A stretch of DNA of 64,000 nt from Candidatus Binatus sp. (lineage in GTDB: Bacteria; Desulfobacterota; Binatia; DP-6). The translations under genes and the position numbers were made by a program. This document shows positions 34,187 through 64,000 of the stretch, in pieces (the stretch's first letter is position 1; every line of letters starts with the position of its first letter). The stretch is from positions 1,284 through 65,283 of the forward strand of contig DATILR010000440.1 in NCBI GenBank assembly GCA_035476275.1, given 5' to 3'. The notes below the pieces were generated by a model. It saw only the letters and a program-made list of their open reading frames with translations, made no database searches and was not told the origin of the DNA.

Positions 34187-35928
34187 TCAGGGCACGAGGC
34201 TCGCGTTCAATACCACCGTGCCACCCGTCAAGCCACCACCGTAGTCGGTCACCTCGAGCAGGTACAGCGACCCGGCGGTGACGGGGAAGCTGATGCGTGA
34301 GGTGAGCGCGCCCGTCGTCGGATCGTCGTCGTCGCAGGTGAGCGCGCTGACCGCCGGGCAGGCGCCCTCGTATGCGCTCAGCACCGTGTCGAAGCTGCTC
34401 CCGGCCGTGTCGACCATCATCGTCCCACTCTGCGGGGCGACGAAGCGGTACCACAGGCTGTGTCCCTGCTGGCCGCCCGTGCCGCAGGGGACGTCCGGAT
34501 CGTCCGACGAGACGCTCGCCCGATCGGAACTGTGGGTCACGCTGGCGGGGAGACCTGCCAGGTCGACCGGATCGGTGCACAGATCGCCCGGCAAGGTGCG
34601 CCGCGACGGGAGGCAGAGCTCCGTTTCCCGGCGCGTGTCGATCGTCCCCCCGCCCAGCTCGTTGCTCACCAGCACCCCCTTCACGGGCGTGTGCCCGACG
34701 TCGCCGAGCGGCTGGCGGACACCGTAGCAGAGCAGTGCATCGTCCGGGCTCTTGATGCCGTCGCCGTTCATGTCGACGGGCAGGCAGAGGTAGTGCGGGC
34801 GGCGCACCACGAAGCGCTGGGCGGCGGTCTTGAACTGGTTCGCGACCTTGAGCTTCTTGGCCCCCGGGAAGCGCGGGTTCGTCCGCACGACGTAGCACTC
34901 GTAATGGTCGACCGCGGTGGTGCTCAAGTCGGGGGGCGCCGGGGGCACCACCCGATCCGATGCCGTCGGGACCAGCAGGTGATCGGGCCGGACGACATCC
35001 ACCACGAGCGCCTCGAGCTGGTTGGTCACCGCGATGCCGGTGTGCGGGAGGTACGGGGGAGAGCCCGCCACCGGATCGATCGCATAGCCGACGAGCTGCG
35101 TCGCCGGATCGAGCGTCCCCTGTCCGTTCGCGTTGGCCGGCGTGCAGAGATCGCCTCGCCGGATCGCATCGAACTGCCGCGACTCGGTGGCCGTGACGAG
35201 GTGGATGCCGTTCACCGGCGTGAAGCTCGCCGTCCCGACCGTGGTGCGGGTGGAGTAGCAGAGGAATGGATCGATCGCGAAGCAGCCCCCGGGGAGTGTC
35301 CCGCACCCCAGTCGCACCTGCACGTCGACGACGTTGTTGGTCTCGTCGGCCTCGGGAATCTCGTTCTCGGGATCCATCACGACGTGCAGGCTGTACAGGG
35401 CGGGGGGCAGGTTCACGTCGGTCACGTCGATGTACTGGCACGGCAGGTACCCGCCGTAGACGTCGGAGCAGCCGGCGCTGATGCCCTGGTAGTTGCAGCT
35501 GGTGAACTGCGAATTCGCGCACTCGACGTCGATCAGGCAGAAGCCGTACTTCCGCGCCTGGGCGAGCACCGTCCCGTTGCCGTCGCGCAGCTCGGCGGTC
35601 GCGAAGCTCTGGAAGTGAGCGTGGCCGTGCGACAGGCTGCAGACGAACAGCGGGTTGGTGCATGCGGCACCGCGGAAGACGCGACAGTCGGGGCAACCGG
35701 GATCGCCCAGGACGAGCGGGTCGGGACCGAGATTCCGCGCGCGCAGCGCGAAGGTGAGCAGGCGGCGCCCGGTCGTCCCGCCGGCGCAGCCCTCGTCCAC
35801 GTCGCCCTGGATGACGTCCGAGGTCACGAGCGCGACGTCGAAGACCTCGGGCACCAGGTCGGGAGCAGCGCCGGCGACGGGCGGACGGGCCAGGGCCAGC
35901 AGCACCCCGATCAGACCCGCAATTCTCA
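34187..35928 (-). CDS. Lysyl-oxidase-like copper amine oxidase with signal peptide and a large C-terminal extension (about 580 aa; start approximate)
   Basis: Lysyl-oxidase copper-site HxHxH (SHGHAHFQSF). A lysine in KYGFCL aligns with the human LOX LTQ lysine (KASFCLEDT). GCSDVYGGYLPCQYIDVTDV aligns with the LOX GCYDTY...DCQWIDITDV block containing the LTQ tyrosine. The signal-peptide GTG start sits about 82 codons inside the tool ORF. Confidence 0.8.
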
Positions 35929-36258
35929 CGTGCGCGGAGCCTATCGCGCACGCGGAGCACCCGTCAAACGAAGTTACAGGCAACGGTTCTAGACAGCCTA
36001 TAGCCCCCTCACGCTTCGCCAGAGCCTTTCTAACCGAAGTTCGCGGATCTGAGGATACGGCCGCTCGGGGATGGGTGCTAGCGACGGCGGACCACGAGCC
36101 ACTTGATCGGACGAGCGCGGGACGCCTACTGTGGGGCTCATGTGGAAGCGGGTCGTCCTCGGCGGTGGCGTTCAAGAAGGCCCGGAACTTCTCCCTCTTC
36201 GACGCTCACTACGAGCCGTGCCGGTAGCCGCCTGACGCGCGACCGCCTCTCTCCGGCA

Positions 36259-43030: not shown

Positions 43031-44014
43031 TCAGTGGACGGGCGCCGCGCTACACAGGAGGCCGTGATCCTGCAAGAAGCAGCCGGGCGCGCTGGGCGGC
43101 GGCGTCGCCTCGTCGTCGCGGTAGTAGTAGCCGGTCATGAAGCACATCTCGTCGTCGGTCGTGACGCCGAAGGTCACCGGGTGATCGTCGTTGTTCGTCC
43201 AGTTGCAGGTGAACCGGAAGACGTCGCCCTGCCGTAGATGAAGGGGGGTCGGCGTCCAGTACTCGTAGGGGTGATCCCAGTCGTCGTTCTCGAAGATCTG
43301 CCCCATGTTTTGGCCACCGGCGGTGAGGTTGATCGTGACCTTCGTGCCCCGCTTGTGCTCGTGTGAAGAGAGCTGGATCACGTTCAGGTCGTACGGTACC
43401 ACCCATTCCGCCGTCGTCGAGGCCGCGGAGTGGGCCGGGATGTGGATGTCGTACGCCCCCACGGTCAGGTTCTCGGCGTGGTGGAGCACGCTCCCCTTCT
43501 TGGCCGGGATGACGTTGAAGAGGATGTCCGGCGTGAGCGAGTCGGTCAGCGAGGCGTTGATGTAGTGCGAGTTGAGGAACACGGGCTGGTGCGGCTCCAG
43601 GCGGACCGCGATGCCGGGAGGGAAGCGCGTGAGCTCGTGCGTGTTCGGGGCGCCGCCCAGGAGCGCGCGCTGGAAGCTGTCCCTCGGACCCAGGCCGATG
43701 CAGCCGGGCGCCTCGACGATGCCCCGGGGAAAGTCGGCCGCGTTCCGATCGCCCCCGAAGTAGGCCCACAGGGCGAAGTGGTGCGTCCCCGCGTTCATCT
43801 TGAACTCGAACTGCTGCACGTCCATCGCCTTGTCGTTGGGGAACGTGCGGTACTCGCAGACCTCGCGCTCGGTAGCGGGGGGGACCGTGAACTTCCCCAT
43901 GCGCATCTGGAAGCCGCGCGGGGGGTGCCGGAGGTGCACCCGGCCGGCCGAGCCCGGCACGGCGAGGAGCGTCACGGCAGCGAGGGAAGCGACCACGCGA
44001 CCGATGGACAGCAT
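43031..44014 (-). CDS. Copper type-II ascorbate-dependent monooxygenase-like protein (PHM/DBH family), secreted
   Basis: Signal peptide. CuH-site residues HH (GTHHF) plus a third His about 71 residues later (NSHYIN). CuM-site HxHxxG (SHEHKRG) plus a Met in an EMC context (DDEMCFM). Spacing (HH, +71 H, +68 HxH, +73 M) matches the PHM H107/H108-H172-H242/H244-M314 layout. Confidence 0.72.
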   Translation of the reverse strand: MLSIGRVVASLAAVTLLAVPGSAGRVHLRHPPRGFQMRMGKFTVPPATEREVCEYRTFPNDKAMDVQQFEFKMNAGTHHFALWAYFGGDRNAADFPRGIVEAPGCIGLGPRDSFQRALLGGAPNTHELTRFPPGIAVRLEPHQPVFLNSHYINASLTDSLTPDILFNVIPAKKGSVLHHAENLTVGAYDIHIPAHSAASTTAEWVVPYDLNVIQLSSHEHKRGTKVTINLTAGGQNMGQIFENDDWDHPYEYWTPTPLHLRQGDVFRFTCNWTNNDDHPVTFGVTTDDEMCFMTGYYYRDDEATPPPSAPGCFLQDHGLLCSAAPVH

Positions 44015-44083
44015 GGGCGCCAGTAACCAAAAGGCGGGCAGATCGTCAAGACGCGAAACGACCGTTCGGGCGATTCGTGGTGC

Positions 44084-44410: not shown

Positions 44411-45793
44411 TCACCCCACGCGGTGCAGCTTCTCGTAGAGATCCCGGAACATCCCGCGCGGATCGAGACGGGCCTTCACCTGCCGGACGGTCGCCTCGTC
44501 GTAGATGCTCCAGAAGCGCTCGGCGCTGTAGTGATTGCGGGAGATCAGCGTCTTCAGGCCGCCGAGCTCGTACGTCTTCTCCTCGAGCTGCTCGGAGCGA
44601 TCCACGCCCGGATCGCCGTTCGGCATCCCGTAGACCGCGAGGTCGACGTAGAGGTCGCCCGCGCGCGCGCGGTGCCCGGCCGAGAGCCAGGGGTAGGGCT
44701 TCGGCACGCGGTACGGGACGACCCAGAGGGGGAAGTAGCGCAGCTCGCGCAGGTACCAGTCGTAGAACTCCGGCACGCGGCCGGCGGGGATGAAGTAGTC
44801 GCAGACCACGTCGGGCCGCCGCTTCAGGCGGAAGATCGGCCGCAGCCGCCCCGACCAGCGAATCATGTTGGTGGAGCCGAGGAAGAGCCGGCCGAGGAGG
44901 AAGCGGACCGGCTTCCACTCGAGCGGCGGCACCGTCCGGCTGAGCCAGTGCGCCTCCGTGTCGTAGCGGAAGAAGTAGTCCGGGGTGGTGAGCACGTCCT
45001 CGTCGAGCACGCGAGTGCTCTTGTAGTAGACGTCGAGCCAGCGGTAGGAGCTGGCGCGCCGCGCCCGCTCGACGAAGCGGCCCAGGCACAGGGTCCAGTG
45101 GTCGGGGGCGTGCACGATCCCGTCGATGAAGTCGACGTCCGCCGCCTCGCACCGTGCCAGCATGGCCGCGTGCAAGGAGGCGGGATCGCGGAATCGCCGG
45201 TACTCGACGTGCACGTACGGCTTGGCGGCGACGAGGGCGAAGCGCACGCGCGTGAGGATGGCGAGCGTGCCGTACGAGCCGTGGATCATGCCGAAGACGA
45301 GCGGCTCGTGCTCGGGCGAACAGCCCAGCACCTCGCCGGTGCCCGTCACGACCTCGTAGTCGAGGCAGGAGTCGTGAAAGCCACCGTAGCGGAACGAGCT
45401 CGACTCGACCGAGCATCCCGCGACGGCGCCGCCGAGCGTGATGCCCTCGAGCTCGGGCACGACCGCCGGCACGAGCCCGTGTCGCAGGGTCGCGTCGACC
45501 ACCGCGCGGAACGTGACGCCTGGCTCCGCGACGCACAGCCGGCGCTCGACGTCCACCTCGAGGACGTGGCGCAGGGTGGAGACGTCGATGCGACGGCCCG
45601 TGAAGCGGGAGTCGCCGCTGGCGAGCGGCACGACGTGATGCACGCCGCCCTTGTCGATGTGCACCGGTCCGCGCGCGCCGACGAGGGCCCGCACGGTCTC
45701 CGCGACGGCGCCCACGCGGCGATCGTGCGCGGCGTCGGTCACGCGGCGGCCGCCGCCTTCGCCGGTCGACCGCGGGTCAGCGTCCATGACCAC
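44411..45793 (-). CDS. FAD-linked oxidoreductase (PCMH-type FAD_binding_4 domain; ALO/DprE1-like), 460 aa
   Basis: N-terminal FAD-binding PCMH-type region (VVPLASGDSRFTGRR...GITLGGAVAGCSVESSS) and a C-terminal substrate domain ending ...RNHYSAERFWSIYDE...DPRGMF. The overlapping 398-aa ORF in another frame is an artefact. Confidence 0.8.
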   Translation of the reverse strand: MVMDADPRSTGEGGGRRVTDAAHDRRVGAVAETVRALVGARGPVHIDKGGVHHVVPLASGDSRFTGRRIDVSTLRHVLEVDVERRLCVAEPGVTFRAVVDATLRHGLVPAVVPELEGITLGGAVAGCSVESSSFRYGGFHDSCLDYEVVTGTGEVLGCSPEHEPLVFGMIHGSYGTLAILTRVRFALVAAKPYVHVEYRRFRDPASLHAAMLARCEAADVDFIDGIVHAPDHWTLCLGRFVERARRASSYRWLDVYYKSTRVLDEDVLTTPDYFFRYDTEAHWLSRTVPPLEWKPVRFLLGRLFLGSTNMIRWSGRLRPIFRLKRRPDVVCDYFIPAGRVPEFYDWYLRELRYFPLWVVPYRVPKPYPWLSAGHRARAGDLYVDLAVYGMPNGDPGVDRSEQLEEKTYELGGLKTLISRNHYSAERFWSIYDEATVRQVKARLDPRGMFRDLYEKLHRVG

Positions 45794-45904
45794 GATGTCG
45801 GCGTATCCTCATCGAGGCGTTCGAGGAAGTGCCCCAGGCGCACTGCCTCGAGCCCGCTCCGGCGCCCTTGACCCGCACCTCGGCCACGGCGTAGGTCACG
45901 GCCC

Positions 45905-46312: not shown

Positions 46313-46402
46313 CGCTCCGCCCGATGTGAGACGGCGCGAGCCGCCCGCCACCCGCTCGACCCACCCGAGGCCCGGACAGTCTGCTATCTTCCGGCCCTCC
46401 TC

Positions 46403-48244
46403 GTGCGTAAGGGCGACCCTCGTTTCTGGAACTGGCTGGCAGCCGTCCTGCTCGTGTCGGGGGTCTATTCCGCCCTGCACACCTTCACGCGCTGGATTCC
46501 ACACGATGAGGGCGTGCTCGCACAGATGGCCGAACGAGCGCTGTCCGGAGAGCTGCCGCACGCCGACTTCGACGAGATCTATTCGGGCGGACTGACCTTC
46601 TTGAACGCGCTGAGCTTCGTCCTCTTCGGCGCGCGCCTCTCCTCGATGCGTATCACCCTCTTCGTGTTCCATCTGGGCTTCCTCGCATCCCTGTTCTCCA
46701 TCGCCACGCGCGCGGCGCGACCTCCCGTGGCCGCCCTCTTCACCCTCCTCTGCCTGAGCTGGGGCTTACCGAACTACTTCGCGGCACTGCCGTCCTGGTA
46801 CCTCCTGATGTTCGCCATCTACGGCACGCATGCCACCGTCAGATACGTCGAGACGGAGCGCGAGGGATGGGTGGTCCTGGCGGGCTTCGTCGGAGGGGTG
46901 TCCTGCCTCTTCAAGGTGGCAGGGGTCTACTATCTGCTGGCGCTCCTGCTCTTTCTCGTCTACCGGGAGCAGCTCCGGGCCGAGGGCGCCGGCGTTGCGC
47001 GGTCGCGCTCGCTCGCGACGTCCCTGTCCGTCCTTCTCGTGCTCGCCTGCCCGGTGATCCTTCTGCTGGGACTGACCTGGGCGAGACTCGATGCGATGGA
47101 GGCGATCTACTTCGTGCTCCCCGGAACCGCCGTCTGCCTCTTCCTGGCGTGGAACGAGTTGCGATCGAACGACGCCGGGCACCAGCGACTCCGCAGAACC
47201 GCGCGCGCGTTCCTGCATGTGGGACTCGGAGCCGCCGCGCCGGTCCTCGTGTTCCTGGTTCCGTATCTCCTCAGGAACGATCTCCATTCGCTCTACCGGG
47301 GCCTCTTCGTGCTCCCGCAGCGCCGATACGACTTCGCCTTCTACCCCCTGCCACCCCCATGGGCTCTTCTCGCCACGCTGCCGATCGCGGCCATCGTCTG
47401 TCTGCCGATCGTCTGGCGCCCCCGCGCGAGCTGGGTCGTCGTGGGCGCGGTCATCGTCCCGATGGCAGCCGTGGTGAGCTTCGGCTTCGAGCAGCCGATC
47501 TACCGTTGGGTCTGGTACTCGGTGCGGCCCCTCGGACCCTTCGCGGCCATGCTGACGTGCGCGCTCCCCCTGCTCGGACGCAGGGAGCCCGCACCCACCA
47601 TGGCGCAACGCCAGCTGCTGTTCCTCATGGGCGCGATGGCGGCATTCGTGAGCGTGGTCCAGTTTCCCTACTCCTTCGGGGTCTACTTCTGGTACGCCGC
47701 TCCACCCATCGCCCTGGCGATCCTGTTCGCGACGACGTACGCACACCCCACATCGTGGTCGAGGATCCACCTCTGCTTGCTGCTGTTCTATCTCGCCTTC
47801 GGCGTCCTCTGGTTGAACACGGGGAACGTGCGCACCACGGGCGTGCTCTACCTCCACTCCGACGCCGACCAGCTCCTCCTGCCCGAGCGAGCGAATCTGC
47901 GGGTGCGCGGGTCCGACAAGGAGGTCTACGAGACCCTGGTGCACGTGATCGACCGGCTGGCCGGCGGCGATCCCTACATCATGGCGACCCCCGATTGTCC
48001 GGAGGTCTACTTCCTGTCGCGGCGAAAAAACCCGACCCGGGTGCTGCACGAGTTCCTCGACCCCGTGAAGCCCACACCGCGACAGCTGCTGGAGCAGCTG
48101 ACGACGAAAGGGGTCCGCGTCGTCGTTCTGAATTCCCGGCCGGAGTTCTCACAGCCCGTGTCGCACGAGCTCTACGCGACGCTCACCGAGGTCTACTCGC
48201 AGCACACCGACGTGGGGTGGTTCCGGGTGCTGTGGAAGGACTGA
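46403..48244 (+). CDS. Large polytopic membrane protein, possibly a GT-C-type (ArnT/PMT-like) glycosyltransferase
   Basis: At least 12 predicted TM helices across about 500 aa, followed by a soluble about 110-aa C-terminal domain. The family call is by architecture only. Confidence 0.55.
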   Translation: MRKGDPRFWNWLAAVLLVSGVYSALHTFTRWIPHDEGVLAQMAERALSGELPHADFDEIYSGGLTFLNALSFVLFGARLSSMRITLFVFHLGFLASLFSIATRAARPPVAALFTLLCLSWGLPNYFAALPSWYLLMFAIYGTHATVRYVETEREGWVVLAGFVGGVSCLFKVAGVYYLLALLLFLVYREQLRAEGAGVARSRSLATSLSVLLVLACPVILLLGLTWARLDAMEAIYFVLPGTAVCLFLAWNELRSNDAGHQRLRRTARAFLHVGLGAAAPVLVFLVPYLLRNDLHSLYRGLFVLPQRRYDFAFYPLPPPWALLATLPIAAIVCLPIVWRPRASWVVVGAVIVPMAAVVSFGFEQPIYRWVWYSVRPLGPFAAMLTCALPLLGRREPAPTMAQRQLLFLMGAMAAFVSVVQFPYSFGVYFWYAAPPIALAILFATTYAHPTSWSRIHLCLLLFYLAFGVLWLNTGNVRTTGVLYLHSDADQLLLPERANLRVRGSDKEVYETLVHVIDRLAGGDPYIMATPDCPEVYFLSRRKNPTRVLHEFLDPVKPTPRQLLEQLTTKGVRVVVLNSRPEFSQPVSHELYATLTEVYSQHTDVGWFRVLWKD

Positions 48245-56218: not shown

Positions 56219-57268
56219 TCAGTGCTGGTCGTCGAGCTTCATGGCCGCGCCGCGGCGGGCGTATACGTCATCGCCCGAGTAGCTCACCTCGAGCACCTCG
56301 TGGCCGGCGTACATCGCCTTCCGGAACCCGTAGCCGACGGACGGCTCCTGCGGCGTCGCGTCCGTCGTGTAATCCCAGCGCGGGCGGGGCTCCCACGTCG
56401 TCGCGCCGTCGCGCAGCGTCTCGACGTCCCATACGAACAGCTGGAAGACGCCGAGGAGGTTCTGGGGCACGTCGGGCCGGAAGAAGAACTCCGTCGCGAT
56501 GGTGACGTCGCCGGGCGGGGCGATGTAGCGGCCGCGGCTCTCGTCGATCAGGAAGACAACGTCGACCGCCGGCTCGCCAAACGGCCGGATCGTTAGCCGC
56601 CACGGCCAGTAGCGGCCGGCGGGGAGGATGGGCGTCGGGACGCCGGCCGGGGTGAAGTGATGGCCCCAGCCGGGCTGCGCCGCCATCGTCACGAGCGGCT
56701 GGCGGACGAGCGTCAGCTCGAGGTCGCGGCCGAGGATCGAGCCCTGGTGGATCGCCGCGATCGACGTGATCGCGGCGTGCTCCGGCGTCGTGCGATCGAT
56801 GCCGGCGCACTGCCGCGGGAAGAGCCCGCGGGCCGCGGCGGTCGTCGGCTGGAGGCCGACGCGCCCGACGCCGTGGTAGTCGACGTTCCGGAGCCAGAGC
56901 GACGGCTCGTCGGGATGGCGGAGGCCCTGCTCCGGCCAGCCGGCGTGGCCGAGGTCGTCGGCGTACTCGAGCCAGTCGGTCGCGACGTCCGTGTCGATCG
57001 TACCGAGGCCGGAGCCGCCGGGCGTTGCGGTGCGGATGCCGAAGAAGACGAGCTTCCGGTTGACGTGCCCGGAGGAGGCGTTGACGCGCAGGTGGTAGCG
57101 CAGGCCGACCGTGTCGGCCGGGACGTCGGCCAGCTTCGCGGAGACGGTGCCGCCGTCGCCGGCGCGGTGCAGGAGCGCGTCGCCCGGCCCGGGAGCGCCG
57201 AGGCTGCGCGCGTAGGCGGGAACCCACGCTGCGAACAGGACGAGGAGCAGGATCGATCGCCACGGCAT
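56219..57268 (-). CDS. Hypothetical secreted protein (349 aa) immediately downstream of the porin-cytochrome genes
   Basis: Signal peptide (MPWRSILLLVLFAAWVPAYA). No heme motifs and no recognisable family. Same strand as the cytochrome cluster, 126 bp after the porin. Confidence 0.55.
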   Translation of the reverse strand: MPWRSILLLVLFAAWVPAYARSLGAPGPGDALLHRAGDGGTVSAKLADVPADTVGLRYHLRVNASSGHVNRKLVFFGIRTATPGGSGLGTIDTDVATDWLEYADDLGHAGWPEQGLRHPDEPSLWLRNVDYHGVGRVGLQPTTAAARGLFPRQCAGIDRTTPEHAAITSIAAIHQGSILGRDLELTLVRQPLVTMAAQPGWGHHFTPAGVPTPILPAGRYWPWRLTIRPFGEPAVDVVFLIDESRGRYIAPPGDVTIATEFFFRPDVPQNLLGVFQLFVWDVETLRDGATTWEPRPRWDYTTDATPQEPSVGYGFRKAMYAGHEVLEVSYSGDDVYARRGAAMKLDDQH

Positions 57269-57393: not shown

Positions 57394-59418
57394 TCAGAAC
57401 TCAAACCGGCGCGTCACCCGGAACTCGAGGATGGTTGCGTCGTAGTCGTTCCGCGACAGCGGATTCTGCGAATACGAGATCCGTCGTGCCTCGATCCCGG
57501 GCTCGAGGAAAGGATGGTGGAAGGCGACGAACGCGCCGGCGTCGATCCGGTCGAGATCGTACGATCCGCGCTGCGGCAACCCTGGCTCGAAGCTCGGTGC
57601 GAGCTTGTTGTCGGAGCGGAACCAGGCGAGGTTCCATCCCGTCGACCAGGGGTATCCGAGGAGCGTGAAGTCGTACGTCAGGGTGCTCGTGATCACGTCC
57701 TCGCTGCCGGACTGCACCGAGCCCCTCGGCTGGTAGCGTGGCGCGATCAGGATCTGGTTGCTGGTATCGAGGTCACGCCGCGTGTAACCGGCAACGGCGG
57801 TCAGGCCGGCGGCCGGCGTGAGGCTCACCGACACGGTATCGGCGAACCGCTGGACGCGCCCGTGGAAGTCGGAGTTCTCGAAGCTGTCGGCGGTGAACTC
57901 GTACGAGAGCTGGAGCCAGTCGCGCGGGCGGAGGTGGAAGCCCGTCTTGCCGCGGTTCTGGAAGGTGTAGGCGATCTCGCGCGACGGGAGAGCGGGCACG
58001 CTCTGCGAGTTGCCCGGGATGGTCCACGGGTCGTCGATCTGGACGTTGTCGTAGCGGAAGAAGAGATCGAGCCAGCGCGCCGGCTGCCAGCGGCCCTCGG
58101 CGACGGCGCCCACGAGGTCGGTCGAGATGTCCTGGTTCGCGAGCGAGAACGCCGCGTCCCGGCGCGCGTACTGGATGCCGGCGCTGAGCGCGAGGGACGT
58201 GGTCGGCCGCACCTCGACGTCCGAGGTGACGCGATTCAGGCGCACGTGGAAGCGCGTGGACGTCTGCAGGCGGCCGGGATTGAGGAGCGCGTCGAGGTCG
58301 CCGTCCTGGCTGCGATCGTCGTAGCGATAGTCCAGGTGAAGCGTGGCGATGGAGGTCAGGCGCACGCTGGCGCCGAGGTCGGCCAGCTGCGTGCTGAGCG
58401 AGGCGTCGCCGGTGTCGAAGCGGGTGGAGGGCCCGTTGTCGGACGGGATCGTGCTGGTACCGTTGCGGAAGCGGGTGCGACTCTCGTCGAGGCTGGCGTT
58501 GGCGTAGACGTAGCCGCCGGTCAGCTCGACGCGATCGCCGACGGGCCGGCTCACCCGCACCCGCGTGATGGGGATGTCGATGTGGTCGTCTTCGGTGCTC
58601 TGCCAGCTCGTGAGCGTGAAGCCTTGCGCTGGGTCTAGGCCGTTGGGGTCGGTGGGACCGTGCAGGCCGTAGGTGCGGCTCACGCGGCGGTACTGTTGCT
58701 CGAGGAAGAAGCCGGTGCCGAGCGCGGTGAACTCGGTCCCGACGCTCCCGACGTTCGTCACCTGGCGCTGCGGCGCCTGCACGAGGAAGTTGCCACCACC
58801 GGGGACCAAGACCGTCGAGGTCCCGTCGCCCTCCAGCTGGTAGAGACGGTAGCCCAGGATGAGAGTCGGGAGGTTCTTCGGGTGGAGGCGCAGCTCGGCG
58901 ATCCCGTTGGTGCGGATCAGGTCGAAGTCGTGGAGGTCGTCCAGGCGGAGATCGCCCGGCACCGTCGCATCGAAGAGGCGTGGGACCTCGTAGAAGTACT
59001 TCGAGCGGATGAAGTCGACGCGCAGGTCCCACAGCGCCCGGTCCTCGGCGTTGAGCACGAAGCGGGACGCGGGCTCGTCCCCCGGGGTGTCCACCTCGAG
59101 GTGGAAGCGGTCGAGCGGCGCCTTGCCGGGCTCGCGAGCCTCGCTGTCCAGCGTGAAGAGGAAGAGGCGGCCGCCAGAGCGCAGGTTGTAGTCCTCGCGG
59201 TACTTGTCCTTCGACCCGTCGATGTCGACCAGTCGGTAGCCCGAAGCGACCGTCGCCGTCGAACGGTAGGGACGCTCCGGCGGGCTCGGGGGAGCCGTCT
59301 CTTCAGGTGTGCTCGCGGCCGGCTCGCCGCCGGCAGCTTCCTCGGCGGGCGCGCGGGTGCCTCCAAGGACGGCGAGCAGGGCGAGCGAAACGACCAGACG
59401 GGCCCCGCACCGCCACAT
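57394..59418 (-). CDS. Outer-membrane beta-barrel protein, MtrB/PioB/MtoB-like porin of a porin-cytochrome complex (674 aa)
   Basis: Signal peptide (MWRCGARLVVSLALLAVLGG). Long protein rich in alternating amphipathic beta-strand-like segments. C-terminal aromatic beta-signal ending ...RVTRRFEF. The start ATG overlaps the decaheme gene's stop (ATGA). Confidence 0.72.
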   Translation of the reverse strand: MWRCGARLVVSLALLAVLGGTRAPAEEAAGGEPAASTPEETAPPSPPERPYRSTATVASGYRLVDIDGSKDKYREDYNLRSGGRLFLFTLDSEAREPGKAPLDRFHLEVDTPGDEPASRFVLNAEDRALWDLRVDFIRSKYFYEVPRLFDATVPGDLRLDDLHDFDLIRTNGIAELRLHPKNLPTLILGYRLYQLEGDGTSTVLVPGGGNFLVQAPQRQVTNVGSVGTEFTALGTGFFLEQQYRRVSRTYGLHGPTDPNGLDPAQGFTLTSWQSTEDDHIDIPITRVRVSRPVGDRVELTGGYVYANASLDESRTRFRNGTSTIPSDNGPSTRFDTGDASLSTQLADLGASVRLTSIATLHLDYRYDDRSQDGDLDALLNPGRLQTSTRFHVRLNRVTSDVEVRPTTSLALSAGIQYARRDAAFSLANQDISTDLVGAVAEGRWQPARWLDLFFRYDNVQIDDPWTIPGNSQSVPALPSREIAYTFQNRGKTGFHLRPRDWLQLSYEFTADSFENSDFHGRVQRFADTVSVSLTPAAGLTAVAGYTRRDLDTSNQILIAPRYQPRGSVQSGSEDVITSTLTYDFTLLGYPWSTGWNLAWFRSDNKLAPSFEPGLPQRGSYDLDRIDAGAFVAFHHPFLEPGIEARRISYSQNPLSRNDYDATILEFRVTRRFEF

Positions 59419-60362
59419 CACGGCTCCAGGAAGAACGCCTGGCTGTTCGAGCCGTGGATCGCCGTGTGGCAGCGCGTGCAATCGCGGTAGCTCGGCTGCA
59501 CGTGGCTCGCCGGCGTCACGGCGTGACACTGGTAGCAGAGCTGGGCGACCTGCTGGTAGCGGAGCAGATGGCGGTTCGCGCTACCGTGTGGCTCGTGGCA
59601 GCTCCCGCAGCCCTCGAGGGTGAGCCCGATGTGCTCGAAGATGAACGGGCCCTCGACCTCGCCGTGGCAGCGGAAGCACGTCCGCTGCTCGGTGTCGCGC
59701 AGCAGCGATCGCTCGGACGTGCCGTGGGGCTGGTGGCAGTCGATGCACGACACCACGCCTTCGGGCACCTTGTGATGCTCGGGCAGCGCGAAGGTCGAGC
59801 GCACGGCCGCATGGCAACGGTAGCAGAGCGCCACCGTCGTCTCGTCGCCACGCCAGGTCGCGCCGCGCATCGGCTGGGGCAGCGGATCGCCCACCTTCAG
59901 CATGAGGCGTGCGCTCCCCCCGTGCGGATCGTGGCAGTCGGTGCAGGAAACGTCGGCGCGCGCGTGCTCGCTGGCCGCGAAGCCGTGCAGGGCGGATTCC
60001 TTGCCGTGACAGCGGAGGCACGGCGCCGCACGCTCGGACGCGGACTCGGACGGGTCGAAGGTACGCAAGTTCCCTGCCTTGCCCCCCCCGCCGTCGACAT
60101 GGGCCTGTCCCGCGCCGTGGCAGGCCTCGCAGCCGCGTTGGTCGGGTGGGCGCGCGGGGTCGTCGAGCGCGCGGGCGTGGGGTGACTTGCCGTAGCTCTC
60201 GCTCCACTCCGCGTGGCAGGCGGCGCAGACCTCGGGTCCCGCGAACGCAGCGGGATCGGGTGGCGGGCCGGGCGCGGGTGCCGGCTGCCGTGGCGAGAGG
60301 TCCGGAAGCCCGCAAGCCAGTGCCACCGCCACCGCGAAGATGGGAACCCAGGCCCGCCTCAC
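59418..60362 (-). CDS. Decaheme c-type cytochrome, MtrA/PioA/MtoA-like (314 aa, 10 CxxCH)
   Basis: Ten CxxCH motifs (CAACH, CEACH, CLRCH, CTDCH, CYRCH, CIDCH, CFRCH, CGSCH, CYQCH, CTRCH) in about 300 aa. Signal peptide with possible lipobox (AVALAC). The GTG start overlaps the upstream cytochrome's stop as GTGA. Confidence 0.85.
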   Translation of the reverse strand: MRRAWVPIFAVAVALACGLPDLSPRQPAPAPGPPPDPAAFAGPEVCAACHAEWSESYGKSPHARALDDPARPPDQRGCEACHGAGQAHVDGGGGKAGNLRTFDPSESASERAAPCLRCHGKESALHGFAASEHARADVSCTDCHDPHGGSARLMLKVGDPLPQPMRGATWRGDETTVALCYRCHAAVRSTFALPEHHKVPEGVVSCIDCHQPHGTSERSLLRDTEQRTCFRCHGEVEGPFIFEHIGLTLEGCGSCHEPHGSANRHLLRYQQVAQLCYQCHAVTPASHVQPSYRDCTRCHTAIHGSNSQAFFLEP

Positions 60363-61441
60363 GGGCGGAACCCGTCGTCGTGGCGGTGACAACCGAGGCA
60401 GGAGTACGTGAAATGCGGCGAGCCGGTGCCGTCCATACGATAGTGGTTCGTCGTCGTGTGGCAGGTCTCGCAGACGCCGGTGCCCGGCGCCGAGGCGCTG
60501 GCAAAGCTGCCGTCGGCCAGGCCGGTGAGGTTGTCGAACACGATCGGCTTGTCGGCGCCGCTCGGCGTGGTGATCGTCTCACGCACGAGCTTGATGTTGC
60601 TCGAGCCATGCGGGTCGTGGCACTGCACGCACGGCAGCGCCACCCCGTTCGGCGCGTGGGTCTGTGTCGACGGATGACAGGTCTGGCAGGCCTCGATCGC
60701 ACGGTGGCCCGGACCCGGCGTCGGATTCTGTTCGGCGTGACAGGTCGTGCAGGTCTGGGGTGCGTGGCCGCTCGGCATCGCGTGCCTCGCCGCCTCGTCC
60801 TGATGGCAGAGCATGCAGTTGTCTTCGGTGGCGACGGGCGCGAACGCCTGCGTGTGGTCGTGGCAGAGAGGGCAGTTTTCACTGAAGTGGGAATCGCCGT
60901 GGCCGCTCGCGGGATAGAAATCGGTCTTGCGGTGACAGACCTCGCACATGCCGCTGCCGGGATCGGTCGGGCTCGCCAGCCCGCCCGGCGCCAGGCCGGC
61001 ATCGACCGTGAAACTCATGTCGTAGAGGTGCTGCCGCCACCGCACCAGGTTGCGCACCAGATGGAGGTTCGCGGTGCCGTGGGGGTCGTGGCAGTTGAGG
61101 CAGGTGCGTGTCTGTCGGCGGCCTCGCTGACCGGCGGTCTTGGCGGGATGCCCGTGGACGTCATCGTGGCAGTCGGCGCAGTTCGGGATCGTGCGGTGGC
61201 GCTGGCCGACGTGGCCCGGCCGGCGATCGCCGTGGCAGGCGATGCAGTCGAGCGCGGCAGCGTGGCCGGCAGGGAACGTGTAGGCCAGCGCCAGGTCGTA
61301 GTGGCAGCTCCCGCACACGCCGGCGCCGGGCGGTGGCGCAGTCTGGGCGGCCGCGCTGCGCGGTATGGGCACACCCATTCCGGCGAGCAGTGCGACCAGC
61401 CTGACCCATGCGGCCAGGCTTCTGTGTTCCCGGACCGGCAT
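60359..61441 (-). CDS. Dodecaheme c-type cytochrome (360 aa, 12 CxxCH), signal peptide
   Basis: Twelve CxxCH motifs (CGSCH, CIACH, CADCH, CLNCH, CEVCH, CPLCH, CMLCH, CTTCH, CQTCH, CVQCH, CETCH, CLGCH). N-terminal signal peptide (LAAWVRLVALLAGMGVPIPRSAAAQ). Confidence 0.85.
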   Translation of the reverse strand: MPVREHRSLAAWVRLVALLAGMGVPIPRSAAAQTAPPPGAGVCGSCHYDLALAYTFPAGHAAALDCIACHGDRRPGHVGQRHRTIPNCADCHDDVHGHPAKTAGQRGRRQTRTCLNCHDPHGTANLHLVRNLVRWRQHLYDMSFTVDAGLAPGGLASPTDPGSGMCEVCHRKTDFYPASGHGDSHFSENCPLCHDHTQAFAPVATEDNCMLCHQDEAARHAMPSGHAPQTCTTCHAEQNPTPGPGHRAIEACQTCHPSTQTHAPNGVALPCVQCHDPHGSSNIKLVRETITTPSGADKPIVFDNLTGLADGSFASASAPGTGVCETCHTTTNHYRMDGTGSPHFTYSCLGCHRHDDGFRP

Positions 61442-61455
61442 GCGATCTCGGATCT

Positions 61456-64000
61456 TCAGGGCAACGCGTTCGCGTGTACCGTCGACACGGCGAAGGTCCT
61501 ACCCTCACCGTGACAGGTGGCGCACGCTTCGACTCCCCCCGGTGCGGTGTTCGTTGCCGCGTGGGCCGCGGTGCTCGCAGCGTCGTGACAGCTAAGGCAG
61601 GCATCCTGGATCGGCGGAGTCGACCCCACCGGCGTATCCACGCCCGCCATGATCTCGGACTGCCGGGTCGGCAACACGTCCGGCGGTAACGGCAACAGCT
61701 GGGTCTCCGGCATGTGGCACTGCTCGCAGTCGGCCCGGGTGCCGGGGAAGCGGACCTCGCCGAAGTTGTTCACCGAGCCGTTGAATCCGTAGACGACGTA
61801 CGGCTGCTCGGTCAGCATCTCGCCCGTGTGGACCTTGTGGAGCAGGTGCTTGAGCACGATGGGCTCCGTGGCCGGGTCGGCACCGCTGACGCCGATCCGC
61901 CGCGCGACGTCGGTCATGTTCGGGTTGTGGCACACCACGCAGTACTCGACGCGGTTGCGCAGGTTGCCGTGAACGCTGAAGCCCTGGGAGAAGACCCCGT
62001 GACACGAGGCGCATTTCGCCTGGTCCACCACCGCACGACGCGGGACGACGGCGGAGGCGTCGACGCTGAAGTCGCGCACCACGTTCTGGATCGCCTCCTG
62101 CACGGTCTGCCCGTTGATCGTGACGTTGCGTCGGGCTTCCATGCCGACGCGCCAGGTTCCCGTGCCGCCGGCGGGAATGCCGTTGGCCACCGTCGTCGTG
62201 TAGGTGAACACGCCGCTGCCGTCGGGACCCGTGAGCGTCCCGTCCGCGCTGCTGCCGATGATGGCTGGGGTGGTCACGGGTGGTATCAGAGCGCCGAAGT
62301 CGCTCGATGGGCCGCTGATAGCGAGCGCCAGGGTGCTCAGACCGGCGAGGCTCGTGAGCGGTGTCCCCGCGTCATCGGTCAGGCGGAACGTCACGGTGAC
62401 TGCCCCGCCCGGGCTGCCGCTCGCGGAGAGCAGCTCGCCTACCAGGCCGGTGAGCTGCATCGAGCGCTGCGGCACCGTGTGCGCGCCCGCCACGGAGAGG
62501 CCGAACTCGGATCCGCTCGGTACGTGGCAGAGCGTCGCACAGAAGGCCTCCGGCTGGGGGCCGGCGGCGTGGTTCTTTCCCGGAGGCCCGGCCGCCGTCG
62601 ACATCTCGCTCGGATTCACGTTGTCGTGGCAGCCCGTGCACGCCGAGGTGGAAGCCTTCGCGAGGTGATCGCCGGCCGTGGCGCCCTGGCCGTGGCACAC
62701 CGCGCAGGTCCGGATGTCCTGCGGGAAGCCGACGCCCGTGACGGTCGTCCCCGTGCAGGTGCCGTTCGGGCAGTCGCCGTCGGTGCTGCAGGGCACGCCG
62801 GCCAGCGCGCCGCCGGCGCAGGCGCTGACCTTCTCGGCGAAAACCGCCGGCGAGCGGCCGATGATCTCGTACTTGGCGCCGAGCGCTCCGTTGACGACGC
62901 TCGGCAGGTTCTTCCCGTGATGGATCCGGTGGATCATCTGCTGCAGCTCGAGCGAGTTGCCGCTCTCGGGGTCGAAGCCCTGGTCGGTGTGACAGAGCTG
63001 GCAGAGGCCGACCTCGCGCCGTCCCCCGCCGTGCTCGGCCAGCGGGTCATGGCAGCCGTTGCATTGCGCCGTGGTGGTGACCTCGCGGACGGTAGAAACG
63101 GCCCCGCCGGCCGGCACGAAGTGGAACAGCGGGTTCGCGTACAGCGTCCGCGTTGGGAGGCTGCGCTCGATCTGGCCCCCGACGGTGTGCGTGGCCGTGG
63201 CGGGGAAGCCGGCGGGCAGGGCGGTGGCGAAGGTGTACGTGTAGATCCCCCTCATGGCGTCCACCGTGGCGAGCGAGCCGCCGCTGTCGTATCCGGGCTG
63301 ACCGGGCGTCGGCACGATGTAGTTCCGGTAGCGCGTGAAGGCGACGGTGTTGCTCTCGGTCGTCGTGGCATCGACGTCGAGATGCGCGATGGTGAACCGG
63401 ACGCGCGCCTGCGACGGGTCGGAGGTCGAGGCCGTGGAGGGGACGAGCGGGACTCCCTCGGCATCGGTCAGGGTGAAGGTGATCGTGACGACGCCCCCCG
63501 CGCTCACCGTGGCGCCCGTGATCTGCGAGGTCAGACCGGCGCCGGGGGGGCCCGGCGGGATGGTGGTGAGCGTCGTGCTGGTCGTGGTAGTCACCGTCGT
63601 GGTCGTTGGCCCGCCGGCGACGGTGGTCGGGACGCAGGTGAGCTTGTAGGTGTCCGAGTCGGTCGTCCCGCCCGCCTTGGCGACGGCTTTCACCGTCACC
63701 TGCCTGGCCGGCACGACGCCCTTCTTGTTGGGTCCCGCGAGCGGGACGGAGAGGAGCGCCGTCGGCGAGCACACCGTCGCGTCGGTCGGCAGCGGCACGG
63801 CGGCCAGCGCTGCCTCCAGCGGTGAGGTGTCGATCGACGAGGATTGCTTCACCGTGGCTTGATTCACCAGACGGGGCTGACAGCTGCGCGTCGGCTGGTT
63901 CAGACAGAAGCTCACCGCGAACAGACAGACGCCGTTGCGGTGTCCGTCGAAATCGCAGACGTCGCCGTCCGCACAGGAGATGCCCTTCGGCGTCTTGCCG
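61456..64000 (-). CDS. Large multiheme c-type cytochrome (at least 9 CxxCH plus one CxxxCH), N-terminus beyond the window edge
   Basis: The frame is open from 64000 to the stop at 61456; the tool's start at 63915 is just the first GTG. Heme motifs: CNGCH, CQLCH, CAVCH, CTGCH, CATLCH (CX3CH), CASCH, CVVCH, CEQCH, CLSCH, CATCH. A Thr-rich linker (PTTTTVTTTTSTTLTT) separates an N-terminal Cys-containing region from the heme domain. Confidence 0.8.
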   Translation of the reverse strand, partial: GKTPKGISCADGDVCDFDGHRNGVCLFAVSFCLNQPTRSCQPRLVNQATVKQSSSIDTSPLEAALAAVPLPTDATVCSPTALLSVPLAGPNKKGVVPARQVTVKAVAKAGGTTDSDTYKLTCVPTTVAGGPTTTTVTTTTSTTLTTIPPGPPGAGLTSQITGATVSAGGVVTITFTLTDAEGVPLVPSTASTSDPSQARVRFTIAHLDVDATTTESNTVAFTRYRNYIVPTPGQPGYDSGGSLATVDAMRGIYTYTFATALPAGFPATATHTVGGQIERSLPTRTLYANPLFHFVPAGGAVSTVREVTTTAQCNGCHDPLAEHGGGRREVGLCQLCHTDQGFDPESGNSLELQQMIHRIHHGKNLPSVVNGALGAKYEIIGRSPAVFAEKVSACAGGALAGVPCSTDGDCPNGTCTGTTVTGVGFPQDIRTCAVCHGQGATAGDHLAKASTSACTGCHDNVNPSEMSTAAGPPGKNHAAGPQPEAFCATLCHVPSGSEFGLSVAGAHTVPQRSMQLTGLVGELLSASGSPGGAVTVTFRLTDDAGTPLTSLAGLSTLALAISGPSSDFGALIPPVTTPAIIGSSADGTLTGPDGSGVFTYTTTVANGIPAGGTGTWRVGMEARRNVTINGQTVQEAIQNVVRDFSVDASAVVPRRAVVDQAKCASCHGVFSQGFSVHGNLRNRVEYCVVCHNPNMTDVARRIGVSGADPATEPIVLKHLLHKVHTGEMLTEQPYVVYGFNGSVNNFGEVRFPGTRADCEQCHMPETQLLPLPPDVLPTRQSEIMAGVDTPVGSTPPIQDACLSCHDAASTAAHAATNTAPGGVEACATCHGEGRTFAVSTVHANALP

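Follow-up and report, generated by a model that had tools for sequence, protein, structure and literature searches.

A decaheme OmcA/MtrC-type cytochrome with a clade-specific CX3CH heme motif and an eight-cysteine N-terminal domain in an Mtr-type operon of Candidatus Binatia

Results

The stretch analysed here (64,000 nucleotides of Candidatus Binatus sp., assembly GCA_035476275.1, contig DATILR010000440.1, forward-strand positions 1,284 to 65,283; hereafter the window) ends inside a minus-strand gene for an MtrC-type decaheme cytochrome, which is followed by genes for a 12-heme cytochrome, an MtrA-like decaheme cytochrome and a putative porin (Table 1). The frame at 61456-63999 is an open C-terminal fragment of 847 residues closed by a stop codon at 61458-61456, and its third-position G+C content (GC3) of 0.91, in a window of 70% G+C, is the signature of a real gene. 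A motif scan of the translated frame recovered exactly ten heme motifs, nine CXXCH and one CX3CH (CATLCH), as the initial annotation of this DNA had reported. These motifs, from which all heme sites discussed below are predicted, are split five and five around the second beta domain. Upstream of them lie seven cysteines (fragment residues 9, 15, 25, 32, 40, 77 and 122), which include all of those quoted in that annotation as evidence for a cysteine-containing N-terminal region. The annotation does not mention a further group, of four non-heme Cys within Domain II (62752-62823).

The N-terminus of the protein had been placed outside the window, and this was confirmed using a near-identical contig (L001, JGI sample 3300020122; 99.2% DNA identity to the window over 5.4 kb) encoding a full-length relative, P0001 (99% identical). 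There, the open reading frame (ORF) extends beyond the window edge by 46 codons, reaching a GTG start and encoding a typical signal peptide, VRAAALAFLVVVVAPNGVTGA, followed by TVPGGG. Because L001 and P0001 carry the frame without interruption to this start, closure by an upstream stop, leaving the N-terminal region untranslated, is excluded. A sequencing error at the CX3CH spacing is excluded likewise, as both L001 and a second contig (L083, 99.6% identical to the window over 7 kb) read CATLCH and 27 homologs agree. Given independent assemblies, 27 homologs of varied origin and an uninterrupted ORF that begins with a signal peptide, there is a negligible chance that either feature is an artefact of assembly or sequencing, or of an untranslated upstream region.

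Table 1. Features of the MtrC-type gene and of the operon genes downstream of it. Positions are those of the window; AF2, AlphaFold2; pLDDT, predicted local distance difference test; aa, amino acids.
Feature	Position	Strand	Remarks
MtrC-type decaheme cytochrome gene	61456..64000	minus	847 of ~893 codons in window
N-terminal 8-Cys beta-sandwich domain	63622..63999	minus	C-terminal 126 of ~150 aa; seven of eight conserved Cys in window
Thr/Pro-rich interdomain linker	63544..63621	minus	AF2 pLDDT <50, P0001 residues 173-193
Domain I (beta-barrel)	63103..63543	minus	AF2 strands, residues 203-340
Domain II (pentaheme, hemes 1-5)	62458..63102	minus	PF22113 stretch and motif positions
Heme 1 motif CNGCH	63049-63063	minus	
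Heme 2 motif CQLCH	62989-63003	minus	
Four-Cys insertion ACAGGALAGVPCSTDGDCPNGTC	62752..62823	minus	Between heme-2 and heme-3 motifs; four non-heme Cys inside Domain II
Heme 3 motif CAVCH	62692-62706	minus	
Heme 4 motif CTGCH	62626-62640	minus	
Heme 5 motif CATLCH (CX3CH)	62524-62541	minus	Fifth in order
Domain III (second beta-barrel, no Cys)	62038..62457	minus	AF2 model and motif scan
Domain IV (pentaheme, hemes 6-10)	61459..62037	minus	PF22113 residues 655-842; E 4.6e-45 for whole protein
Heme 6 motif CASCH	61999-62013	minus	
Heme 7 motif CVVCH	61927-61941	minus	
Heme 8 motif CEQCH	61714-61728	minus	
Heme 9 motif CLSCH	61585-61599	minus	
Heme 10 motif CATCH	61510-61524	minus	
360-aa cytochrome, 12 CXXCH and signal peptide	60359..61441	minus	Separates mtrC from mtrA in all close loci
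MtrA/DmsE-family decaheme cytochrome, presumed porin-embedded partner	59418..60392	minus	TIGR03508, 205 bits (cutoff 192)
711-aa putative outer-membrane porin, MtrB position	57394..59529	minus	Gene order in L001-L005

Comparison with the OmcA/MtrC proteins, which had been suggested as one of several possible families, placed the protein firmly among them. It scores 381.1 bits against TIGR03507, the OmcA/MtrC decaheme family (cutoff 209.3), and 153.7 bits against PF22113, which covers domains II/IV of MtrC/MtrF (cutoff 30), in two stretches; a phmmer search of PDB sequences returned MtrF, OmcA, UndA and MtrC. We further built an AF2 model of P0001 from a 100-sequence alignment. In this model (mean pLDDT 89.7), the best Foldseek matches were OmcA (4lmh, E 1e-29) and UndA (3ucp, E 5e-25), alongside MtrC (6qyc and 4lm8, TM 0.69 per target) and MtrF (3pmq), with TM 0.67-0.69 over the target for MtrC and MtrF together and a range over the five structures of E 1e-20 to 1e-29 and TM 0.56-0.69 per target. 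Together the profile, sequence and fold matches identify the known four-domain decaheme arrangement of beta-barrel, pentaheme, beta-barrel and pentaheme domains. Domain I matches OmcA-like_N (PF22112) weakly and aligns with OmcA residues 48-275. As Domain III holds no cysteine, it lacks the CX8C disulfide, and no CX8C lies between the heme-5 and heme-6 motifs of the window protein or of any of 99 homologs. Kinship with MccA, OmcS or OmcZ had also been raised, and was dropped when no match to these families appeared in Pfam, NCBIfam, PDB-sequence or Foldseek searches; the special CX15CH/CX17CH heme motif of MccA is not present in the protein.

The closest genomes are metagenome-assembled genomes of Candidatus Binatia, at 75% and 65-66% identity, while the wider family at 35-40% identity extends to Acidobacteriota, Chloroflexota and others. 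The homologs P0028, P0036 and P0069 are members of this family as well, as is Group 5 of Baker et al. 2022 for Acidobacteriia. Binatia-type homologs have the N-terminal domain, linker, four-Cys insertion and operon in common with the window protein.

Like Shewanella MtrC and MtrF (4lm8, 6qyc, 3pmq; complex 6r2q), the Binatia protein has ten hemes, two pentaheme and two beta-barrel domains in alternation, a candidate distal His for every heme, and a gene adjacent to those for an MtrA-type decaheme cytochrome and a porin, although sequence identity is just 16-19%. It differs from Shewanella MtrC in its CX3CH at heme 5 and an extra four-Cys insertion in Domain II, and in having a Sec-type signal, a 150-aa eight-Cys domain and a Thr linker in place of a lipobox. 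In Shewanella-type MtrC the lipobox Cys serves for anchoring to the outer leaflet, and export is by the type II secretion system. The P0001 signal peptide ends ...GVTGA/TVPGGG and the first Cys is residue 33, inside the folded domain, which leaves no lipobox. Also missing is the CX8C disulfide of Domain III, which in Shewanella controls the reduction of flavin and guards against oxygen (PMC9973256). The Binatia operon further departs from that of Shewanella in carrying a 12-heme cytochrome gene between mtrC and mtrA. OmcA (4lmh) and UndA (3ucp) of Shewanella, which are the best structural matches and of which OmcA aligns with Domain I in sequence, are accessory lipoproteins not encoded directly with MtrAB; UndA has 11 hemes, and neither has a CX3CH motif or an eight-Cys N-terminal domain.

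We evaluated the CX3CH motif by reading the heme-5 site in the 120 best database homologs, of which 27 + 91 cover it. The site is C[SAGT][TP][LI]CH in 27/27 homologs at ≥69% identity, which come from JGI, ENA and Logan, and CXXCH, mostly CR[LVIT]CH, in all 91 of the others (≤68% identity), so that the window protein belongs to a derived CX3CH subclade. Aligned by phmmer, CATLCH falls opposite motif five of MtrF, where a gap of one residue opens in MtrF, and the AF2 model predicts it to lie in a confident helix. A neighbour-joining tree of 100 full-length sequences gathers the 21 with CX3CH into exactly one clade (bootstrap 100/100), whose sister is a Binatia group with CR[LI]CH. The uniformity of the 27 homologs and the single clade indicate that CX3CH is no error and stems from one ancient insertion, retained since.

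In the alignment of 100 homologs no variation is seen at the two Cys and the His of the motif. The same holds for exactly ten His outside the heme motifs, in CX3CH and CXXCH relatives alike; ten is the number that bis-His ligation of ten hemes would require. Since all ten are conserved, the CX3CH site likely holds an ordinary bis-His heme, and no distal-ligand switch accompanying CX3CH was found among the homologs. In one clade of MtrA, CX3CH at heme 1 is coupled to a His-to-Cys switch of the distal ligand (bioRxiv 10.1101/2025.05.29.656830); such a switch was considered here and dropped, given the invariance of the ten His. Other precedents for CX3CH in cytochromes of extracellular electron transfer are Rhodoferax CymA and ImcH (PMC6295460). 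These cases share with ours a clade-specific change from CX2CH to CX3CH, but they concern other proteins and other hemes, and in the present MtrC the change comes with no change of ligand. Within this operon, the CymA-like protein likewise bears a CX3CH motif (CTG[AIT]CH in the CX3CH clade and the sister clade), so that the lineage evidently matures such hemes; heme is probably attached at CATLCH too. The Ccm system of E. coli attaches heme to CX3CH and CX4CH motifs without a dedicated lyase.

The initial annotation had taken the motif as the mark of a specialised heme and the protein as a surface-type terminal reductase or oxidase with an appended domain. The appended non-heme domain on an OmcA/MtrC-type multiheme protein stands; the specialised heme reads too much into the motif. 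A catalytic, substrate-binding or unusually ligated heme in a dedicated terminal enzyme would agree with the rarity of CX3CH, its strict conservation within the clade and the ligand switch of the MtrA clade, but we consider it very unlikely: neither clade varies at the ten non-motif His, the vicinity of the site offers no Cys, Met or Lys specific to the clade that could serve as a ligand, the sister clade has the same operon with a plain CR[LI]CH, and CX3CH recurs in electron-transfer proteins, namely the CymA-like protein of this operon and, elsewhere, CymA and ImcH. As judged from conservation, the motif appears to be a variation on a normal bis-His heme, either tolerated or serving to tune it, rather than a catalytic site.

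The position of this heme suggests where such a variant might act. In the MtrCAB complex of S. baltica, MtrC heme C5 lies 8 Å edge-to-edge from MtrA heme A10, and the sequence around heme C5 is conserved and hydrogen-bonds MtrAB (Edwards 2020, PMC7198977). By homology, CX3CH would sit at the electron entry junction of the protein. The C-terminal tail of MtrA reads ...HGSN[ST]Q[AS][FH]FLEP in 9/9 loci that pair a CX3CH MtrC with MtrA; in the sister clade and deeper MtrAs it reads ...DP[RH]F..., with DPRF[LM]EP in the sister clade. This difference would fit co-adaptation of the interface, and we take it for no more than a lead.

The N-terminal domain (residues 22-172 of P0001) has eight conserved Cys and a conserved PGGG-x3-DC start (alignment A2). 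AF2 predicts it with confidence as a beta-sandwich with one helix, whether it is modelled within the full-length protein or by itself (pLDDT 93.3). Pfam and NCBIfam gave no match at E ≤ 1, on which ground an assignment to DUF4215/myxo_disulf_rpt (PF13948/TIGR02232) was dropped, and a fold search of the PDB gave none below E 0.016, returning just generic Ig-like sandwiches at TM ≤ 0.47. A profile of the domain, however, detected representatives of at least 1285 clusters (50% identity), of which 457 match at E ≤ 1e-10; in these proteins the domain stands right after the signal peptide or at the C-terminus, and alone or fused. We scanned 60 longer members for fusion partners, and found DUF4215 Cys-rich repeats in 13 and PQQ/BamB-like propellers in 12; PAF-AH/PETase-like hydrolases and NHL, PKD, CBM96, BNR and FG-GAP domains also occur. 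Most proteins with the domain are metagenomic. Taxon names attach to just two, a DUF4215 protein of Binatia and a CehA/McbA metallohydrolase of Limnocylindrales, and a few others with functional JGI/IMG labels alone are called cysteine-rich repeat protein, BamB or polyvinyl alcohol dehydrogenase. There is no further copy of the domain in the window, where the search gave a non-significant echo (E ~400) in the Cys insert of Domain II. About 2.5 kb past the window edge (L001:142-2679, minus) lies a divergently oriented gene for an 845-aa di-haem oxidoreductase (DHOR) with DUF4215/myxo-type Cys-rich repeats, a repeat type often fused to the N-terminal domain in other proteins.

The Thr-rich tract noted in the initial annotation is present between this domain and Domain I. 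In the run GGPTTTTVTTTTSTTLTT at 63562-63615, 12 of 15 residues are Thr, whereas Thr makes up 12% of the whole protein. Being the sole internal segment of low AF2 confidence, and varying in length and sequence among homologs, the linker is best regarded as flexible. Its O-glycosylation, as proposed, is pure conjecture. A 643-aa membrane protein about 15 kb from mtrC (46313-48244, plus) matches PMT_2 (GT-C, protein-mannosyltransferase-like) at E 4e-6; it is a possible lead for such a modification, although nothing links the gene to mtrC.

The N-terminus is modular across the family. In a branch of MtrC homologs at 44-48% identity, the eight-Cys domain is replaced either by a lipobox (...LAGC or ...LSGC; L[AS]GC) with a PT linker, or by a four-Cys EF-hand/dockerin-like module with a PT linker, which we call dockerin-like only, as its matches to the Pfam EF-hand and Dockerin_1 families are sub-threshold. 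The four-Cys insertion of Domain II follows the same division: it is found in every homolog bearing the eight-Cys domain, duplicated or triplicated in a few (P0086, P0057), and is absent from the 13-14 lipobox or dockerin-like homologs. The positional exchange with a lipobox or an EF-hand/dockerin-like module is the main reason for reading the eight-Cys domain as an interchangeable tether, which with its Thr linker would form a disulfide-stabilised attachment holding the cytochrome to the cell envelope. A ligand-binding module of the carbohydrate-binding module (CBM) type, directed at a mineral, a polysaccharide or matrix and not at the cell, is a possible but unlikely alternative. It would suit a beta-sandwich with weak Ig/CBM-like structural neighbours that is found at either terminus and fused to hydrolases and to CBM96, PKD, BNR and NHL proteins; it sits less well with the domain taking the exact place of lipoboxes in homologs and with the lack of significant similarity to any known binding module.

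We then considered the genes around mtrC. The gene order is kept in five loci (L001-L005): a 215-aa NrfH/CymA-like tetraheme cytochrome with membrane helices, a 65-aa membrane protein, a 105-aa class-I monoheme cytochrome c, MtrC, the 12-heme cytochrome, the MtrA-like cytochrome and the porin. The CymA/NrfH-like gene lies just past the window edge (L001:3982-4629, also in L002-L005), and its product has three CXXCH motifs and a C-terminal CX3CH, which is CTGACH in the close clade and CTGICH or CTGTCH in the sister clade. With CTGACH and MtrC heme 5, the operon of the close clade carries two CX3CH hemes. Since only a few bases separate the genes of the operon, its promoter probably precedes the CymA-like gene, at ~1.2 kb past the window edge.

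No sequence relative of the 12-heme cytochrome was found in the PDB. The MtrA homolog, in contrast, was matched by phmmer to chain A of 6r2q (S. baltica MtrA) at E 2e-26; our local PDB table labels this chain 'Cystathionine beta-synthase', an apparent mislabel of the molecule name. A lipobox-like ...ALACG or ...LLAACG stands at the start of the MtrA homolog in the window, L001-L005 and L083-L090. The porin ranges from 660 to 710 aa across L001-L005. Directly downstream of it in the window (56219-57268, minus) is a gene for a 349-aa signal-peptide protein that has no Pfam or NCBIfam match and whose position is not conserved in L002. Further away, on the minus strand, is a secreted-looking oxidase cluster (34187-36205, 43031-44083 and 44411-45808) comprising a lysyl-oxidase-like protein with DUF7450, a copper type II monooxygenase C-terminal domain and a FAD_binding_4 oxidase.

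Two related Binatia loci set MtrC homologs in other company. In Candidatus Binatia SMAG_U9820 (L009:8815-18495, DATGIZ010000014) a homolog of 51% identity with the eight-Cys domain is followed after 13 nt by the small subunit of a [NiFe]-hydrogenase with a twin-arginine (TAT) signal, and then by the large subunit, a HycI-type protease and HypF. From this adjacency, with neither MtrA nor the porin nearby, the decaheme 'surface' cytochrome may partner a periplasmic hydrogenase. In Candidatus Binatia OBJ2_061818_090_70 (L008:3580-11802) a homolog of 46% identity, without MtrAB, lies just downstream of genes for the cbb3-oxidase subunits CcoN and CcoO and a P-type ATPase.

Discussion

The window protein is a clear member of a known, automatically annotated family, in a recognisable MtrCAB-type operon, and the core finding is therefore not a new kind of system. 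Its likely role is that of the OmcA/MtrC-type decaheme subunit in a porin-cytochrome conduit resembling MtrCAB, made by a Candidatus Binatia bacterium. In such a conduit, electrons from the quinol pool would pass to the CymA/NrfH-like tetraheme cytochrome, then to periplasmic cytochromes (the monoheme cytochrome c and the 12-heme protein), and through an MtrA-like decaheme threaded through the porin to heme 5 of the MtrC-type protein, whose five-plus-five heme cross would spread them to external acceptors, for example Fe/Mn oxides or humics. The heme-5 motif itself is best described as a one-residue insertion of single origin that most likely still holds a bis-His c-type heme, and which would reshape the local helix or heme pose at the junction with MtrA without creating a catalytic site.

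The direction of electron flow cannot be read from the sequence, and reverse flow may be possible. A conduit working inward, fed by Fe(II), Mn(II), reduced minerals or a partner in the manner of Mto/Pio systems, with the monoheme cytochrome c acting like MtoD, seems to us a rather unlikely alternative. The operon holds a class-I monoheme cytochrome c together with a CymA-like protein, a combination that also occurs in the mto clusters of iron oxidisers, and the related locus L008 sets an MtrC homolog beside a cbb3 oxidase. The window, though, shows no sign of lithotrophy, and to our knowledge the dedicated oxidiser clusters (MtoAB, PioAB) are without an MtrC-type surface cytochrome.

The protein could instead be periplasmic, with its N-terminal domain family marking periplasmic redox proteins. 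The hydrogenase locus L009, the fusions of the domain to PQQ-dehydrogenase-like propellers and the missing lipobox would all agree with this, yet we find it improbable, as in the CX3CH clade the gene is tightly linked to those for MtrA and the porin in the canonical C-A-B order and all structurally characterised family members are extracellular.

Several observations weigh against the conduit proposed here. As the lipobox and the Domain III CX8C are both missing, details known from Shewanella may not apply. The PQQ-propeller dehydrogenase-like proteins to which the N-terminal domain is also fused are typically periplasmic, and the L009 homolog adjoins a periplasmic [NiFe]-hydrogenase with no MtrAB nearby, so that the domain alone does not prove surface exposure or anchoring. 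The link of the porin to MtrB consists of its position and a sub-threshold MtrB_PioB match (E 0.0084), and the porin had no match among PDB sequences, including the solved MtrB. The co-variation of the MtrA tail with CX3CH, being a single evolutionary event, is weak evidence for adaptation at the interface.

A more ambitious proposal has two parts: that the eight-Cys PGGG-x3-DC sandwich is an undescribed, widespread envelope-tethering domain that replaces lipidation in surface cytochromes and many secreted enzymes of Binatia-like bacteria, and that the CX3CH of heme 5 co-evolved with the MtrA tail and retunes the junction. We regard the two parts together as a speculative and rather doubtful combination.

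What is new is the clade-fixed CX3CH at the presumed docking heme, the absence of both lipid anchor and CX8C switch, and a widespread eight-Cys domain that lacks annotation. We found no description of these features in the literature searched, and a search for Binatia Mtr systems or for CX3CH in MtrC gave nothing specific; Binatia are not mentioned in two papers on the phylogenetic distribution of Mtr whose text was searched (PMC8805035 and PMC12133095).

MtrCAB is the reference model for the wiring of bacterial metabolism to minerals and electrodes, and mechanistic knowledge of it comes nearly all from Shewanella. The locus described here shows that Binatia, an uncultured lineage abundant in soil, have an Mtr-type operon that is complete and self-contained. 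It departs from Shewanella in having no lipid anchor, no CX8C oxygen switch and an altered motif at the heme that should face MtrA. Should the N-terminal domain prove a general tether, this would explain the cell association of non-lipoprotein MtrC homologs, and more than 1000 orphan protein clusters would gain an annotation. If CX3CH alters the geometry or potential of heme 5, the clade would represent a natural experiment on rate-limiting electron transfer between proteins, which would be useful for the engineering of conduits.

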